Source: Escherichia phage T7
DNA: 40,532 nucleotides
Sequence record: LR745707
Strand: one strand, 5' to 3'
Part shown: positions 19,534 through 40,532 of the stretch, piece by piece
Numbering within the stretch: position 1 is the stretch's first letter
How the letters are laid out: every line of letters begins with the position of its first letter
Notes under the pieces: generated by a model
The model's database searches: none
The model's input: the letters and a program-made list of their open reading frames with translations, nothing else
What the model was told of the DNA's origin: nothing
Translations under genes and position numbers: made by a program

Positions 19534-19833
19534 ATGGGTAAGAAAGTTAAGAAGGCCGGGAAGAAAGTCACCAAGTCCGTTAAGAAAGTCGTTAAGGAAG
19601 GGGCTCGTCCGGTTAAACAGGTTGCTGGCGGTCTAGCTGGTCTGGCTGGTGGTACTGGTGAAGCACAGATGGTGGAAGTACCACAAGCTGCCGCACAGAT
19701 TGTTGACGTACCTGAGAAAGAGGTTTCCACTGAGGACGAAGCACAGACAGAAAGCGGACGCAAGAAAGCTCGTGCTGGCGGTAAGAAATCCTTGAGTGTA
19801 GCCCGTAGCTCCGGTGGCGGTATCAACATTTAA
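19534..19833 (+). CDS. 7.3: gp7.3 (tail-associated protein)
   Basis: 99-aa track ORF, lysine-rich. Confidence 0.9.
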   Translation: MGKKVKKAGKKVTKSVKKVVKEGARPVKQVAGGLAGLAGGTGEAQMVEVPQAAAQIVDVPEKEVSTEDEAQTESGRKKARAGGKKSLSVARSSGGGINI

Positions 19834-34570: not shown

Positions 34571-34622
34571 GGCGAAATAATCTTCTCCCTGTAGTCTCTT
34601 AGATTTACTTTAAGGAGGTCAA

Positions 34623-36656
34623 ATGGCTAACGTAATTAAAACCGTTTTGACTTACCAGTTAGATGGCTCCAATCGTGATTTTAATATCCCGTTTGAGTAT
34701 CTAGCCCGTAAGTTCGTAGTGGTAACTCTTATTGGTGTAGACCGAAAGGTCCTTACGATTAATACAGACTATCGCTTTGCTACACGTACTACTATCTCTC
34801 TGACAAAGGCTTGGGGTCCAGCCGATGGCTACACGACCATCGAGTTACGTCGAGTAACCTCCACTACCGACCGATTGGTTGACTTTACGGATGGTTCAAT
34901 CCTCCGCGCGTATGACCTTAACGTCGCTCAGATTCAAACGATGCACGTAGCGGAAGAGGCCCGTGACCTCACTGCGGATACTATCGGTGTCAATAACGAT
35001 GGTCACTTGGATGCTCGTGGTCGTCGAATTGTGAACCTAGCGAACGCCGTGGATGACCGCGATGCTGTTCCGTTTGGTCAACTAAAGACCATGAACCAGA
35101 ACTCATGGCAAGCACGTAATGAAGCCTTACAGTTCCGTAATGAGGCTGAGACTTTCAGAAACCAAGCGGAGGGCTTTAAGAACGAGTCCAGTACCAACGC
35201 TACGAACACAAAGCAGTGGCGCGATGAGACCAAGGGTTTCCGAGACGAAGCCAAGCGGTTCAAGAATACGGCTGGTCAATACGCTACATCTGCTGGGAAC
35301 TCTGCTTCCGCTGCGCATCAATCTGAGGTAAACGCTGAGAACTCTGCCACAGCATCCGCTAACTCTGCTCATTTGGCAGAACAGCAAGCAGACCGTGCGG
35401 AACGTGAGGCAGACAAGCTGGAAAATTACAATGGATTGGCTGGTGCAATTGATAAGGTAGATGGAACCAATGTGTACTGGAAAGGAAATATTCACGCTAA
35501 CGGGCGCCTTTACATGACCACAAACGGTTTTGACTGTGGCCAGTATCAACAGTTCTTTGGTGGTGTCACTAATCGTTACTCTGTCATGGAGTGGGGAGAT
35601 GAGAACGGATGGCTGATGTATGTTCAACGTAGAGAGTGGACAACAGCGATAGGCGGTAACATCCAGTTAGTAGTAAACGGACAGATCATCACCCAAGGTG
35701 GAGCCATGACCGGTCAGCTAAAATTGCAGAATGGGCATGTTCTTCAATTAGAGTCCGCATCCGACAAGGCGCACTATATTCTATCTAAAGATGGTAACAG
35801 GAATAACTGGTACATTGGTAGAGGGTCAGATAACAACAATGACTGTACCTTCCACTCCTATGTACATGGTACGACCTTAACACTCAAGCAGGACTATGCA
35901 GTAGTTAACAAACACTTCCACGTAGGTCAGGCCGTTGTGGCCACTGATGGTAATATTCAAGGTACTAAGTGGGGAGGTAAATGGCTGGATGCTTACCTAC
36001 GTGACAGCTTCGTTGCGAAGAAGTTTCGCCCGGCTGCGCTCGACCCGCGCGGCATGACGCTGGTTGCCGGCGCGTTTTGGGCAGACATCTATCTGCTAGG
36101 CGTCAACCACCTGACCGATGGCACCAGCAAATACAACGTGACAATTGCAGATGGTAGTGCATCACCTAAGAAATCTACCAAGTTCGGTGGAGACGGCAGC
36201 GCGGCCTACAGTGACGGAGCTTGGTACAACTTCGCTGAGGTCATGACTCATCACGGTAAGCGCCTGCCTAACTACAACGAATTCCAGGCGCTGGCTTTCG
36301 GCACGACCGAGGCTACGTCCAGCGGCGGCACCGACGTGCCCACCACCGGCGTGAACGGCACGGGCGCAACGAGCGCGTGGAACATCTTCACGTCCAAGTG
36401 GGGCGTTGTGCAGGCGTCCGGTTGCTTGTGGACGTGGGGTAACGAGTTCGGCGGCGTGAATGGCGCATCCGAATACACGGCCAACACTGGCGGCAGAGGA
36501 TCGGTGTACGCCCAGCCCGCTGCTGCGCTATTCGGCGGCGCCTGGAACGGCACGTCGCTCTCGGGTTCTCGCGCTGCGCTCTGGTACAGCGGGCCGTCGT
36601 TCTCGTTCGCGTTCTTCGGGGCGCGCGGCGTCTGTGACCACCTGATTCTTGAGTAG
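34623..36656 (+). CDS. 17: Chimeric tail fibre: T7 gp17 residues 1 to about 466 fused to a foreign GC-rich 211-aa C-terminal domain recognised as the BPP-1 Mtd C-type-lectin receptor-binding domain
   Basis: 677 aa versus 553 aa for native gp17; T7 sequence through ...LRDSFVAK, then KFRPAALDPRGMTLVAGAFWADIYLLGVNHLTDG...FFGARGVCDHLILE; sharp GC rise from 36021. Confidence 0.85.
   Translation: MANVIKTVLTYQLDGSNRDFNIPFEYLARKFVVVTLIGVDRKVLTINTDYRFATRTTISLTKAWGPADGYTTIELRRVTSTTDRLVDFTDGSILRAYDLNVAQIQTMHVAEEARDLTADTIGVNNDGHLDARGRRIVNLANAVDDRDAVPFGQLKTMNQNSWQARNEALQFRNEAETFRNQAEGFKNESSTNATNTKQWRDETKGFRDEAKRFKNTAGQYATSAGNSASAAHQSEVNAENSATASANSAHLAEQQADRAEREADKLENYNGLAGAIDKVDGTNVYWKGNIHANGRLYMTTNGFDCGQYQQFFGGVTNRYSVMEWGDENGWLMYVQRREWTTAIGGNIQLVVNGQIITQGGAMTGQLKLQNGHVLQLESASDKAHYILSKDGNRNNWYIGRGSDNNNDCTFHSYVHGTTLTLKQDYAVVNKHFHVGQAVVATDGNIQGTKWGGKWLDAYLRDSFVAKKFRPAALDPRGMTLVAGAFWADIYLLGVNHLTDGTSKYNVTIADGSASPKKSTKFGGDGSAAYSDGAWYNFAEVMTHHGKRLPNYNEFQALAFGTTEATSSGGTDVPTTGVNGTGATSAWNIFTSKWGVVQASGCLWTWGNEFGGVNGASEYTANTGGRGSVYAQPAAALFGGAWNGTSLSGSRAALWYSGPSFSFAFFGARGVCDHLILE
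36518..36653 (+). other. DGR variable region (VR) at the 3' end of the chimeric fibre gene
   Basis: About 135 bp GC-rich block matching the remembered BPP-1 mtd VR; codons at recalled template AAC positions read GCC, AAC, GGC, CTC, CTC, TAC, AGC, TTC, TTC, TTC. Confidence 0.6.
36617..36653 (+). promoter_or_regulatory. DGR IMH (initiation of mutagenic homing): 14-bp G/C-only block plus adjacent 23 bp
   Basis: cggggcgcgcggcg (36617-36630) followed by tctgtgaccacctgattcttgag. Confidence 0.6.
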
Positions 36657-36675
36657 CGGGGCCGAAAGGCCCCGC
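36656..36675 (+). promoter_or_regulatory. DGR target-recognition hairpin (8-bp GC stem, GAAA loop)
   Basis: GCGGGGCC GAAA GGCCCCGC immediately after the stop codon; no U-run, so not a typical intrinsic terminator. Confidence 0.7.
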
Positions 36676-36686
36676 CAAGGCAACCG

Positions 36687-36710
36687 GATTTACTTTAAGG
36701 AGGTCAAATG
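36687..36710 (+). promoter_or_regulatory. Duplicated gene 17 ribosome-binding site driving trxA
   Basis: gatttactttaaggaggtcaaatg is identical to 34602-34625 upstream of gene 17. Confidence 0.85.
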
Positions 36711-37037
36711 AGCGATAAAATCATTCACCTGACCGATGACTCTTTTGATACCGACGTGCTGAAAGCTGATGGTGCAATTCTGGTTGATTTCTGGGCAGAG
36801 TGGTGCGGCCCTTGCAAAATGATCGCTCCAATCCTGGACGAAATTGCGGACGAATATCAGGGTAAGCTGACTGTGGCCAAACTGAACATTGACCAGAACC
36901 CTGGCACCGCACCGAAATACGGTATCCGTGGCATCCCAACTCTGCTGCTGTTCAAAAACGGTGAAGTGGCAGCAACCAAAGTAGGCGCTCTGTCTAAAGG
37001 CCAACTGAAAGAGTTCCTGGACGCCAACCTGGCTTAA
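36708..37037 (+). CDS. trxA: Thioredoxin 1 (E. coli TrxA protein sequence), inserted and synonymously recoded
   Basis: 109-aa [109 protein letters not shown]; WCGPC active site; not a T7 gene. Confidence 0.95.
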
Positions 37038-37098
37038 TGATTGGTAAATCACAAGGAAAGACGTGTAGTCCACGGATGGACTCTCAAGGAGGTACAAG

Positions 37099-37302
37099 GT
37101 GCTATCATTAGACTTTAACAACGAATTGATTAAGGCTGCTCCAATTGTTGGGACGGGTGTAGCAGATGTTAGTGCTCGACTGTTCTTTGGGTTAAGCCTT
37201 AACGAATGGTTCTACGTTGCTGCTATCGCCTACACAGTGGTTCAGATTGGTGCCAAGGTAGTCGATAAGATGATTGACTGGAAGAAAGCCAATAAGGAGT
37301 GA
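37099..37302 (+). CDS. 17.5: gp17.5 holin (GTG start)
   Basis: 67-aa track ORF with one hydrophobic segment; RBS caaggaggtacaag upstream. Confidence 0.9.
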   Translation: MLSLDFNNELIKAAPIVGTGVADVSARLFFGLSLNEWFYVAAIAYTVVQIGAKVVDKMIDWKKANKE

Positions 37303-37307
37303 TATGT

Positions 37308-37577
37308 ATGGAAAAGGATAAGAGCCTTATTACATTCTTAGAGATGTTGGACACTGCGATGGCTCAGCGTATGCTTGCGGACCTTTCGGACCATGAGCGT
37401 CGCTCTCCGCAACTCTATAATGCTATTAACAAACTGTTAGACCGCCACAAGTTCCAGATTGGTAAGTTGCAGCCGGATGTTCACATCTTAGGTGGCCTTG
37501 CTGGTGCTCTTGAAGAGTACAAAGAGAAAGTCGGTGATAACGGTCTTACGGATGATGATATTTACACATTACAGTGA
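37308..37577 (+). CDS. 18: gp18 terminase small subunit
   Basis: ATG at 37308 (MEKDKSLITFLEML...) within track ORF 37299-37577; 89 aa. Confidence 0.9.
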   Translation: MEKDKSLITFLEMLDTAMAQRMLADLSDHERRSPQLYNAINKLLDRHKFQIGKLQPDVHILGGLAGALEEYKEKVGDNGLTDDDIYTLQ

Positions 37578-37615
37578 TATACTCAAGGCCACTACAGATA
37601 GTGGTCTTTATGGAT
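37578..37615 (+). promoter_or_regulatory. RNase III processing site R18.5
   Basis: actcaaggccactacagatagtggtctttatggatg hairpin. Confidence 0.55.
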
Positions 37616-37671
37616 GTCATTGTCTATACGAGATGCTCCTACGTGAAATCTGAAAGTTAACGGGAGGCATT

Positions 37672-38103
37672 ATGCTAGAATTTTTACGTAAGCTAATCCC
37701 TTGGGTTCTCGCTGGGATGCTATTCGGGTTAGGATGGCATCTAGGGTCAGACTCAATGGACGCTAAATGGAAACAGGAGGTACACAATGAGTACGTTAAG
37801 AGAGTTGAGGCTGCGAAGAGCACTCAAAGAGCAATCGATGCGGTATCTGCTAAGTATCAAGAAGACCTTGCCGCGCTGGAAGGGAGCACTGATAGGATTA
37901 TTTCTGATTTGCGTAGCGACAATAAGCGGTTGCGCGTCAGAGTCAAAACTACCGGAACCTCCGATGGTCAGTGTGGATTCGAGCCTGATGGTCGAGCCGA
38001 ACTTGACGACCGAGATGCTAAACGTATTCTCGCAGTGACCCAGAAGGGTGACGCATGGATTCGTGCGTTACAGGATACTATTCGTGAACTGCAACGTAAG
38101 TAG
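37672..38103 (+). CDS. 18.5: gp18.5 (Rz-like inner-membrane spanin)
   Basis: 143-aa track ORF with N-terminal transmembrane segment. Confidence 0.9.
   Translation: MLEFLRKLIPWVLAGMLFGLGWHLGSDSMDAKWKQEVHNEYVKRVEAAKSTQRAIDAVSAKYQEDLAALEGSTDRIISDLRSDNKRLRVRVKTTGTSDGQCGFEPDGRAELDDRDAKRILAVTQKGDAWIRALQDTIRELQRK
37787..38038 (+). CDS. 18.7: gp18.7 (Rz1-like outer-membrane spanin, embedded in 18.5 in another frame)
   Basis: 83-aa track ORF nested in gene 18.5; lipobox-like ATISGCASE. Confidence 0.75.
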   Translation: MSTLRELRLRRALKEQSMRYLLSIKKTLPRWKGALIGLFLICVATISGCASESKLPEPPMVSVDSSLMVEPNLTTEMLNVFSQ

Positions 38104-38124
38104 GAAATCAAGTAAGGAGGCAAT

Positions 38125-39885
38125 GTGTCTACTCAATCCAATCGTAATGCGCTCGTAGTGGCGCAACTGAAAGGAGACTTCGTGGCGTTCCTATTCGTCT
38201 TATGGAAGGCGCTAAACCTACCGGTGCCCACTAAGTGTCAGATTGACATGGCTAAGGTGCTGGCGAATGGAGACAACAAGAAGTTCATCTTACAGGCTTT
38301 CCGTGGTATCGGTAAGTCGTTCATCACATGTGCGTTCGTTGTGTGGTCCTTATGGAGAGACCCTCAGTTGAAGATACTTATCGTATCAGCCTCTAAGGAG
38401 CGTGCAGACGCTAACTCCATCTTTATTAAGAACATCATTGACCTGCTGCCATTCCTATCTGAGTTAAAGCCAAGACCCGGACAGCGTGACTCGGTAATCA
38501 GCTTTGATGTAGGCCCAGCCAATCCTGACCACTCTCCTAGTGTGAAATCAGTAGGTATCACTGGTCAGTTAACTGGTAGCCGTGCTGACATTATCATTGC
38601 GGATGACGTTGAGATTCCGTCTAACAGCGCAACTATGGGTGCCCGTGAGAAGCTATGGACTCTGGTTCAGGAGTTCGCTGCGTTACTTAAACCGCTGCCT
38701 TCCTCTCGCGTTATCTACCTTGGTACACCTCAGACAGAGATGACTCTCTATAAGGAACTTGAGGATAACCGTGGGTACACAACCATTATCTGGCCTGCTC
38801 TGTACCCAAGGACACGTGAAGAGAACCTCTATTACTCACAGCGTCTTGCTCCTATGTTACGCGCTGAGTACGATGAGAACCCTGAGGCACTTGCTGGGAC
38901 TCCAACAGACCCAGTGCGCTTTGACCGTGATGACCTGCGCGAGCGTGAGTTGGAATACGGTAAGGCTGGCTTTACGCTACAGTTCATGCTTAACCCTAAC
39001 CTTAGTGATGCCGAGAAGTACCCGCTGAGGCTTCGTGACGCTATCGTAGCGGCCTTAGACTTAGAGAAGGCCCCAATGCATTACCAGTGGCTTCCGAACC
39101 GTCAGAACATCATTGAGGACCTTCCTAACGTTGGCCTTAAGGGTGATGACCTGCATACGTACCACGATTGTTCCAACAACTCAGGTCAGTACCAACAGAA
39201 GATTCTGGTCATTGACCCTAGTGGTCGCGGTAAGGACGAAACAGGTTACGCTGTGCTGTACACACTGAACGGTTACATCTACCTTATGGAAGCTGGAGGT
39301 TTCCGTGATGGCTACTCCGATAAGACCCTTGAGTTACTCGCTAAGAAGGCAAAGCAATGGGGAGTCCAGACGGTTGTCTACGAGAGTAACTTCGGTGACG
39401 GTATGTTCGGTAAGGTATTCAGTCCTATCCTTCTTAAACACCACAACTGTGCGATGGAAGAGATTCGTGCCCGTGGTATGAAAGAGATGCGTATTTGCGA
39501 TACCCTTGAGCCAGTCATGCAGACTCACCGCCTTGTAATTCGTGATGAGGTCATTAGGGCCGACTACCAGTCCGCTCGTGACGTAGACGGTAAGCATGAC
39601 GTTAAGTACTCGTTGTTCTACCAGATGACCCGTATCACTCGTGAGAAAGGCGCTCTGGCTCATGATGACCGATTGGATGCCCTTGCGTTAGGCATTGAGT
39701 ATCTCCGTGAGTCCATGCAGTTGGATTCCGTTAAGGTCGAGGGTGAAGTACTTGCTGACTTCCTTGAGGAACACATGATGCGTCCTACGGTTGCTGCTAC
39801 GCATATCATTGAGATGTCTGTGGGAGGAGTTGATGTGTACTCTGAGGACGATGAGGGTTACGGTACGTCTTTCATTGAGTGGTGA
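38125..39885 (+). CDS. 19: gp19 terminase large subunit (DNA maturase B)
   Basis: 586-aa track ORF. Confidence 0.95.
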
Positions 39886-39966
39886 TTTATGCATTAGGAC
39901 TGCATAGGGATGCACTATAGACCACGGATGGTCAGTTCTTTAAGTTACTGAAAAGACACGATAAAT

Positions 39967-39989
39967 TAATACGACTCACTATAGGGAGA
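39967..39989 (+). promoter_or_regulatory. T7 RNAP promoter phiOR
   Basis: taatacgactcactatagggaga. Confidence 0.9.
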
Positions 39990-40143
39990 GGAGGGACGAA
40001 AGGTTACTATATAGATACTGAATGAATACTTATAGAGTGCATAAAGTATGCATAATGGTGTACCTAGAGTGACCTCTAAGAATGGTGATTATATTGTATT
40101 AGTATCACCTTAACTTAAGGACCAACATAAAGGGAGGAGACTC

Positions 40144-40293
40144 ATGTTCCGCTTATTGTTGAACCTACTGCGGCATAGAGTCACCTACCGATTTCTTGTG
40201 GTACTTTGTGCTGCCCTTGGGTACGCATCTCTTACTGGAGACCTCAGTTCACTGGAGTCTGTCGTTTGCTCTATACTCACTTGTAGCGATTAG
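40144..40293 (+). CDS. 19.5: gp19.5
   Basis: 49-codon ORF MFRLLLNLLRHRVTYRFLVVLCAALGYASLTGDLSSLESVVCSILTCSD after RBS aagggaggag. Confidence 0.75.
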   Translation: MFRLLLNLLRHRVTYRFLVVLCAALGYASLTGDLSSLESVVCSILTCSD

Positions 40294-40369
40294 GGTCTTC
40301 CTGACCGACTGATGGCTCACCGAGGGATTCAGCGGTATGATTGCATCACACCACTTCATCCCTATAGAG

Positions 40370-40532
40370 TCAAGTCCTAAGGTATACCCATAAAGAGCCT
40401 CTAATGGTCTATCCTAAGGTCTATACCTAAAGATAGGCCATCCTATCAGTGTCACCTAAAGAGGGTCTTAGAGAGGGCCTATGGAGTTCCTATAGGGTCC
40501 TTTAAAATATACCATAAAAATCTGAGTGACTA
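40370..40532. repeat. Right-end array of short CCTAAAG-like repeats preceding the (absent) right terminal repeat
   Basis: Repeated cctaagg / cctaaag / cctat units visible; window ends exactly where the right terminal repeat would start. Confidence 0.6.

Follow-up and report, generated by a model that had tools for sequence, protein, structure and literature searches.

A GC-rich tail-fibre segment from Bordetella phage BPP-1 in an engineered bacteriophage T7 genome record

The window analysed here, the whole 40,532-nucleotide stretch of record LR745707 (Escherichia phage T7), contains a GC-rich block towards its right end, and we are almost certain that this block is a synthetic DNA fragment put on purpose into the engineered T7 genome of Grigonyte et al. 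(2020, Viruses 12:193). The case is already known, as a published laboratory construct. The block is not a separate gene but the 3' third of a single 677-aa ORF (34623-36656) that crosses the junction, and in which T7 gp17 residues 1-466 are fused in frame to residues 171-381 of the BPP-1 major tropism determinant Mtd, a tail-fibre tip protein (Table 1). The foreign segment proposed in the initial annotation is real, although it does not stand alone but forms the C-terminal portion of a tail-fibre fusion ORF, and the insert to which it belongs reaches 37039.

Table 1. Features of the chimeric tail-fibre gene, the adjoining trxA cassette and the right flank
Feature	Coordinates	Strand	Remarks
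Native ribosome-binding region of T7 gene 17, with start codon	34602..34625	+	Copy 1 of the 24-nt direct repeat; same as in T7 V01146 upstream of gene 17
T7 gp17 codons 1-466: tail-attachment domain, shaft, pyramid domain	34623..36020	+	100% identity to T7 records up to 36020
Synthetic, partly recoded BPP-1 mtd codons 171-381 and TAG stop	36021..36656	+	In-frame fusion; receptor-binding C-terminal part of Mtd-P1 with variable region
DGR variable region VR1, 134 bp	36518..36651	+	Identical to annotated VR1 of BPP-1 (AY029185)
IMH: (GC)14 CGGGGCGCGCGGCG (36617-36630) and 21-bp element (36631-36651)	36617..36651	+	Sequence read directly
GC hairpin/cruciform, 8-bp stem, GAAA loop	36656..36675	+	Folding energy -13.3 kcal/mol (z = -2.8)
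Final 11 nt of the BPP-1 mtd-avd intergenic region	36676..36686	+	Homology to BPP-1 stops at 36686, immediately upstream of the avd (bbp7) start codon
T7 gene 17 RBS region, second copy, driving trxA translation	36687..36710	+	Exact 24-nt repeat
Recoded E. coli trxA (thioredoxin)	36708..37037	+	Pfam Thioredoxin, E = 8e-35
T7 backbone resumes: genes 17.5, 18, 18.5, 19, 19.5	37040..40532	+	V01146 36285-39777, 100% identity, no differences

Results

The sharp compositional discontinuity that the initial annotation placed at 36021 was confirmed by sliding-window GC and GC3 profiles. The GC content of 36021-36690 is 0.628, against 0.485 for positions 1-36020 and 0.474 from 36691 to the end (48.5% for the rest of the window), and it lies far outside the distribution of non-overlapping 670-base windows (mean 0.485, sd 0.024, maximum 0.560; z = 6.1); the highest-GC 670-base window of the whole sequence starts at 36007. 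The 5' edge is abrupt, with 60-base GC values rising from 0.45-0.52 to 0.67-0.72 at 36000-36030, while GC3 over the final 130 codons of the ORF is 0.77-0.90, compared with 0.33-0.70 upstream. Stop codons in all six frames number 33 within the block, about half the backbone frequency (mean 65.7, minimum 46). The tetranucleotide comparison with the T7 backbone that had been proposed as a check was run, and the block departs from the backbone (distance z = 8.2) and resembles BPP-1 flanking DNA, with which its correlation is 0.80 as against -0.12 with T7. The jump reflects the difference in GC content between the two phages, about 64-67% in BPP-1 and about 48.5% in T7. The sequence strings quoted previously are found in the block, and the two long ORFs called spurious, 36388..36678 on the minus strand (96 aa) and 36460..36645 on the plus strand (61 aa), both exist, lying off-frame within the real coding frame.

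Other parts of that description needed adjustment. The start of the block at 36021 stands, but its end does not, since BPP-1-derived DNA stops at 36686 and not at 36690. T7 backbone does lie to the left; to the right, however, 36687-37039 is also foreign (the duplicated RBS and recoded trxA) yet has an ordinary GC content of 0.50, and composition reveals only about two thirds of the 1019-base insert. The block is GC-rich overall but not uniformly so, with a drop to 0.45-0.60 over approximately 36090-36270, which coincides with a cluster of synonymous G/C-to-A/T changes described below.

Homology to T7 ends by BLAST exactly at 36020, the last base of gp17 codon 466, and the junction splits no codon of either gene (gp17 codon 467 and mtd codon 171, both in frame 0). 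Pfam searches of the fusion protein identify Phage_T7_tail at residues 1-162 and gp37_trimer at residues 371-464, and gp17 residues 1-467 of PDB 7boz match its N-terminal part. The native gp17 tip domain (residues 467-553) has been removed, with 263 nt of T7 (V01146 36022-36284) cleanly missing. A further candidate difference in the T7 portion, T118A of gp17 (G at 34974), was considered as an unlisted new mutation and rejected, being also present in the authors' wild-type T7 LR745710; it is a laboratory-strain polymorphism relative to V01146.

Beyond the junction, BLAST aligns 36021-36686 collinearly, at 96.4% identity, with BPP-1 mtd from codon 171 through the stop codon and a further 30 nt; this supports the earlier proposal that the segment came, horizontally or synthetically, from a high-GC source such as Bordetella. 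The segment differs from native BPP-1 at 24 positions, in every case by a synonymous G/C-to-A/T change that leaves the protein identical to Mtd 171-381, and 18 of these changes crowd into one 127-base stretch (36143-36269). They lowered the GC content of the synthetic copy only slightly. In the PDB the best Mtd match is 1yu0 (Mtd-P1; residues 166-381, E = 8e-139), ahead of the P3c, M1, U1 and I1 variants, and the pertactin complex 2iou also matches the encoded Mtd part. The C-type lectin domain of Mtd is said to comprise residues 171-381; published residue boundaries of Mtd domains were sought in PMC2408619 and PMC3567102 and were not found there.

The 24-nt RBS region of gene 17 matches exactly at two places in the window, where none would be expected by chance. 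The second copy precedes a trxA gene whose protein is identical to E. coli TrxA despite 51 nucleotide differences over 330 nt, 48 of which fall at third codon positions; nucleotide identity is about 84% to all 5,426 E. coli genomes (84.5% to the native gene). Grigonyte et al. (2020) give the sequence of this trxA g-block in their Fig. S7. Their Table S2 names RBS B0034 where the window has the gene 17 RBS. Transcription of trxA probably occurs by read-through from the gene 17 promoter, because no terminator lies between the two genes. The GC hairpin at the end of the mtd segment was considered as an intrinsic terminator and rejected, as it is not picked up by a consensus scan and has no T-run behind it; the sole plus-strand terminator-like hit (36401-36419) is inside coding sequence, and is no more than shuffled sequences predict. 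The T7 sequence that resumes at 37040 continues to the end of the window, which is without the right terminal repeat.

The end of the mtd segment includes the target elements of the BPP-1 diversity-generating retroelement (DGR). VR1 differs from the BPP-1 template repeat (TR) at 22 positions, 17 at TR adenines in the body and five in the last 21 bp; these five, at 36637-36645, lie in the 21-bp IMH element, in agreement with Guo et al. (2011; PMC3240598). The native DGR requires the hairpin for target recognition, and the 3' boundary of its target has been mapped at +24 from VR (PMC3240598), which is where the hairpin in the window ends. No TR was found in the window by BLAST with the 6.2 kb BPP-1 cassette, which returned only the mtd segment and a TR-to-VR alignment, and tblastn with Avd and Brt detected neither the accessory-protein gene avd nor the reverse-transcriptase gene brt, its best hits being short chance matches (E = 0.38-1.2). 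Compared with a complete DGR, the window thus holds a VR with a 3' IMH and a hairpin ≤24 bp downstream, and is without TR, brt and avd.

Discussion

Several sequence matches support the attribution to Grigonyte et al. (2020). The same recoded bases are present in the mtd g-block of their Fig. S7 (for example ACAATTGCAGATGGTAGTG...CACCTAAG and GGCAGAGGA) and in LR745708.1. Four Gibson primers of pAG_23 match both junctions exactly (36001-36040, 36667-36706 and 36667-36712), the junction at 36686/36687 being that of the 'mtd g-block reverse' and 'trxA g-block forward' primers. The window contains neither the pAG_26 primers nor the g-block terminator. The gp17 range in Table S4 is 1-466, as here, the backbone is that of the authors' wild-type T7 LR745710 save for three loci listed in Table S6, and the lengths of the parts add up to exactly 40,532.

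The closest published design is that of pAG_23 (phAG_1, Table S4; PRJEB35760), which likewise joins gp17 1-466 to Mtd from K171, is without the g-block terminator, and continues with the gene 17 RBS and recoded trxA. The exact genome had no match in the phage collection searched, where the closest record was LR745708.1 (phAG_3; gp17 1-466 and Mtd 163-381), annotated as a chimaeric tail fibre of T7 gp17 amino acids 1-466 and BPP1 tail fibre, with trxA after it. The two genomes share the same architecture, recoded mtd and trxA cassette, and are 99.9% identical overall, but LR745708.1 has 24 extra nt at the junction (NEYSLWDI, Mtd 163-170), an extra 48-nt terminator-like g-block tail after the hairpin, and an AG at about 1900 that is missing from the window, and it also differs at 742, 19559, 24875, 34974 and 36374. 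The BPP-1 mtd/DGR tropism-switching cassette itself (AY029185) is identical to the window in Mtd residues 171-381, VR1, IMH and hairpin; relative to it, the window holds only the 3' 636 nt of mtd, with the 24 synonymous changes, and 30 nt downstream, and lacks TR, avd, brt and Mtd residues 1-170.

Membership of this series is certain, while the construct label is not. The junctions fit pAG_23/phAG_1 (Tables S3 and S4), whereas the backbone SNVs at 742, ~1897-1900 and 19559-19560 are listed under phAG_4 (Table S6). The window was initially matched to phAG_4 through these SNVs, but it does not contain the phAG_4 primers, which have the I170 junction and keep the terminator; the labelling in the supplement is inconsistent, with no biological difference.

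A natural origin, in which a T7-like phage would have gained a receptor-binding module of a Bordetella phage by mosaic tail-fibre recombination, deserves almost no credence. Tail-fibre tips are often exchanged among phages, and composition by itself cannot separate a natural from a synthetic origin, but the directional recoding (24 of 24 changes synonymous and G/C-to-A/T, 18 of them within 127 bases) is common to the published g-block, and the coincidence of the junctions with published Gibson primers refutes natural transfer in practice. The recoded E. coli trxA with its duplicated RBS follows directly, in a backbone with near 100% identity to laboratory T7. In place of a natural donor free of design signatures we thus find directional recoding, primer junctions, a duplicated RBS and a recoded marker; of the two origins that the initial annotation had left side by side, the synthetic one holds and natural horizontal transfer falls to the recoding, the g-block and the primer junctions.

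It is likewise exceedingly improbable that the chimera is an assembly artefact, with T7 reads joined to reads from BPP-1 or plasmid contamination. This series of genomes consists of short-read SPAdes assemblies, of which the missing right terminal repeat is typical; however, each junction keeps the reading frame and has precisely the designed sequence, the loss of 263 nt of the T7 tip is clean and the total length agrees to the base, an independently assembled sibling has the same architecture, and the mutants were confirmed by PCR and Sanger sequencing (Grigonyte et al., 2020).

We therefore retain the reading of the block as a deliberately inserted synthetic fragment. In this design Mtd 171-381 replaces the gp17 tip (467-553) after residue 466, with altered host recognition as the aim, and the recoded trxA behind the duplicated gene 17 RBS acts as a positive-selection marker on a trxA-deleted host, on which only trxA-carrying recombinants grow because T7 DNA polymerase needs host thioredoxin. 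Both the purpose of the design and the selection scheme are stated by Grigonyte et al. (2020). The arrangement is that of established trxA marker selection of T7 recombinants, with trxA placed in the phage genome beside the edit and a trxA-deleted host; nothing substantive differs, trxA being here recoded and preceded by the duplicated RBS. All T7-Mtd fusions fail on E. coli unless wild-type fibre (gp17) is given in trans (Grigonyte et al., 2020). Receptor binding by Mtd needs the trimer, in which neighbouring protomers contribute Tyr322 and Tyr333 (PMC2408619).

With the synthetic fragment came the DGR target elements of mtd (VR1, IMH and hairpin) but not the donor machinery, and the hairpin is a carried-over passenger in the T7 chimera. 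That a working DGR was transplanted into T7, making the fibre tip self-diversifying, has next to no likelihood. The chimera retains intact copies of VR1, (GC)14, the 21-bp IMH element and the hairpin to +24, and these cis elements suffice to make a target (Guo et al., 2011; PMC3240598), but avd, brt and TR are absent by blastn and tblastn and therefore no diversification is possible in this genome; moreover, no DGR donor is described by Grigonyte et al. (2020), and the VR is the parental BPP-1 VR1 with no trace of diversification. There is perhaps a small chance that, with avd-TR-brt supplied in trans in E. coli, the T7 tail-fibre tip could be hypermutated in vivo. If so, variants regaining infectivity, whether on E. 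coli or on pertactin-bearing cells, would be selectable, turning a dead construct into a self-diversifying T7 host-range platform. Neither the window nor the paper gives any sign of the intent or function of such use, and the fibre may fail to assemble.

In summary, the block carries little biological weight but is a clean positive control for genome scanning: a jump of about 14 GC points, a doubled GC3 and a halved stop-codon density located the 5' junction of the insert to the base. The limit of the compositional signal is equally plain, as the adjoining 353 foreign bases (RBS and recoded trxA) are T7-like and would be missed. If encountered in a T7 genome, an orphan VR accompanied by an IMH and a hairpin could be mistaken for a natural DGR remnant. 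Public 'Escherichia phage T7' records include engineered, non-infective chimeras, which should be left out of work on natural tail-fibre mosaicism and on DGR distribution.

Compositional discontinuity

The initial annotation held that the GC-rich segment at 36021-36690 is foreign in composition, and this is borne out, since its GC content is 62.8 % against 48.5 % before it and 47.4 % after it. Non-overlapping 670-base windows average 48.5 % GC (SD 2.4 points, maximum 56.0 %), placing the segment about 6 SD out, and the most GC-rich 670-base window anywhere in the sequence begins at 36007. At the 5' edge the change is abrupt, with 60-base GC rising from 0.45-0.52 to 0.67-0.72 near 36000-36030, and GC3 in the frame of the containing ORF is 0.77-0.90 in the final 130 codons versus 0.33-0.70 upstream. 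In tetranucleotide usage the segment lies 8.2 SD further from the T7 backbone profile than the backbone windows themselves do, and its profile correlates at 0.80 with the BPP-1 DNA flanking mtd and at -0.12 with T7. Off-frame ORFs had also been reported at 36388-36678 (minus strand) and 36460-36645 (plus strand), and both were found; they are spurious products of the scarcity of stop codons in the segment (33 over six frames; backbone mean 65.7, minimum 46).

A chimeric tail-fibre gene of synthetic origin

The segment does not form a separate gene but is the 3' third of a single 677-residue ORF (34623-36656, plus strand). BLAST against phage records splits this ORF exactly between 36020 and 36021: the upstream side is 100 % identical to T7 gene 17, and 36021-36686 is collinear with mtd, which encodes the tail-fibre tip protein of Bordetella phage BPP-1 (96.4 % identity, 24 mismatches, no gaps). 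The junction falls at a codon boundary of both genes (gp17 codon 467, mtd codon 171), so that the encoded protein is gp17(1-466)-Mtd(171-381). Pfam places the T7 tail-fibre N-terminal domain at residues 1-162 and a gp37_trimer/pyramid region at 371-464; among PDB entries, the gp17 part matches 7boz (residues 1-467) and the remainder matches Mtd-P1 in 1yu0 (residues 166-381, E = 8e-139). The native gp17 tip is missing (263 nt, V01146 36022-36284). The sequence shows that the receptor-binding tip of the tail-fibre gene has been swapped for the C-terminal part of Mtd-P1, which bears the variable region.

The 24 differences from native BPP-1 are without exception synonymous replacements of G/C by A/T, which reduce the GC content of the BPP-1-derived DNA from 66.7 % to 63.1 %; 18 of them fall in 36143-36269, where they deepen a local GC dip. 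Such a directional pattern of silent change indicates design, not evolution. The synthetic mtd g-block printed in Fig. S7 of Grigonyte et al. (2020; PMC7077284) has identical recoded bases, and four Gibson primers that the paper gives for plasmid pAG_23 match exactly across both junctions (36001-36040, 36667-36706, 36667-36712); the pAG_26 primers have no match in the window. Given these design signatures, a natural island is rejected. The earlier proposal of a foreign, high-GC, Bordetella-like and possibly synthetic origin is thus supported by the collinearity with BPP-1 mtd, the silent recoding and the g-block and primer matches, and can be sharpened: the segment is a synthetic copy of BPP-1 mtd codons 171-381.

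The duplicated ribosome-binding site and trxA

After the fibre gene the gene-17 ribosome-binding site (RBS) region is repeated exactly (36687-36710) and leads into the E. coli thioredoxin gene trxA, which is translated independently. The RBS at 36687-36707 is copied from the native T7 gene-17 region, whereas Table S2 of the paper names 'RBS (B0034)'. Since trxA encodes a protein identical to the native one yet differs at 51 of 330 nt (48 at third codon positions), its nucleotide identity being only 84 % across the 5,426 complete E. coli genomes, it is a recoded synthetic gene; the recoded version is also printed in Fig. S7 of Grigonyte et al. (2020). Recoding left its GC content unchanged (0.503; native 0.509), and composition therefore gives no sign of foreign origin for 36708-37037.

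Since no terminator-like site separates the chimeric fibre gene from trxA, read-through from the gene-17 promoter presumably accounts for trxA transcription. The g-block's terminator-like tail is not present in the window. The sibling engineered phage record LR745708.1 (phAG_3) keeps it as a 48-nt hairpin and T-run (TACTCGAACCACTAGCCCGCTCTTATCGGGCGGCTAGGGGTTTTTTGT) in the mtd-trxA gap (2308-2355 of that record); because the window lacks this hairpin after 36686, trxA expression levels may differ between the two constructs.

The gene-17 RBS through the ATG forms a 24-nt exact direct repeat (34602-34625 and 36687-36710) flanking the entire chimeric fibre gene. Recombination between the copies would remove the chimera and place trxA directly under gene-17 signals, which is the phAG_7 layout; under trxA selection the construct might become unstable in this way.

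Target elements of a diversity-generating retroelement

The segment carries target elements of the BPP-1 diversity-generating retroelement (DGR), including the variable region VR1, the IMH element at its 3' end and a hairpin.

Coordinates of features in and beside the chimeric tail-fibre gene
Feature	Coordinates	Remark
VR1	36518-36651	Identical to BPP-1 VR1
(GC)14 and 21-bp IMH elements	36617-36651	
Hairpin, 8-bp stem and GAAA loop	36656-36675	
E. coli thioredoxin gene trxA	36708-37037	Protein identical to native

VR1 differs from the BPP-1 template repeat (TR) at 22 positions, 17 of them TR adenines and five in the terminal 21 bp. The end of the hairpin coincides exactly with position +24, mapped as the boundary of the DGR target on its 3' side (Guo et al., 2011; PMC3240598). 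The window holds no copy of TR and no homologue of the accessory gene avd or the reverse transcriptase gene brt, and with two defining parts absent the segment is not a DGR.

Backbone and strain variants

The T7 backbone restarts at 37040, with no differences beyond. The length balance is exact (39,937 - 160 - 1 - 263 + 1,019 = 40,532), the 160 being the right terminal repeat, which is missing: window 1-160 corresponds to V01146 39778-39937 and the window ends at V01146 39777. This is a feature of short-read assembly, not a deletion.

Outside the insert only three loci differ from the authors' wild-type T7 (LR745710), namely 742 T>C, an AG deletion at about 1900 and 19559 T>G, and all three are listed in Table S6 of Grigonyte et al. 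(2020). The first is intergenic, 8 nt from the annotated position of E. coli promoter A3 (750), and the last changes Val to Gly at gp7.3 codon 9. At about 1897-1900, AG is lost from a short AG-repeat run (CAAGAGAGGGC to CAAGAGGGC). A 2-nt loss is expected to cause a frameshift in the early ORF that sibling records annotate at 1781-1999; Table S6 gives this locus as three changes of single bases that substitute amino acids, whereas the window shows a 2-nt deletion.

T at 24156 (C in V01146) and G at 34974 (A in V01146; gp17 T118A) are shared with LR745710 and are laboratory-strain polymorphisms relative to V01146. phAG_3 has the reference A at the position equivalent to 34974, which suggests that its recombination tract or homology arm introduced reference-type sequence there.

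Construct identity and significance

The segment certainly belongs to a published, already known series of engineered phages (Grigonyte et al., 2020, Viruses 12:193; PMC7077284). LR745708.1 is annotated 'Chimaeric tail fibre created from fusion of T7 tail fibre (gp17 amino acids 1-466) and BPP1 tail fibre (Mtd ...)', followed by trxA, and fits phAG_3 twice over (N163 start, 24876 A>G variant). In the window the Mtd part begins at K171 (PDB numbering) and the junctions match the primers for pAG_23, named phAG_1 (171-382) in Table S4, whereas the backbone variants stand under phAG_4 in Table S6; the phAG_4 design has an I170 junction and keeps the terminator, and the window matches neither. The construct name is thus inconsistent in the supplement, the junctions being pAG_23/phAG_1 (Tables S3 and S4) and the variants phAG_4 (Table S6).

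In this system trxA provides positive selection on a trxA-deleted host, and recombinants were initially grown with wild-type gp17 in trans; only the T7/Yep-phi fusion infected E. coli, all T7-Mtd fusions being non-infective (Grigonyte et al., 2020; PMC7077284). Mtd-P1 is an obligate trimer that binds Bordetella pertactin through three basal sites, each built with residues from neighbouring protomers (Miller et al., 2008; PMC2408619). E. coli presumably lacks the receptor, and with Mtd residues 1-170 missing, correct trimer formation by the fusion is uncertain; either alone would account for the non-infectivity. The value of the segment is as a control case, and it cautions that engineered chimeras are present among 'T7' records.
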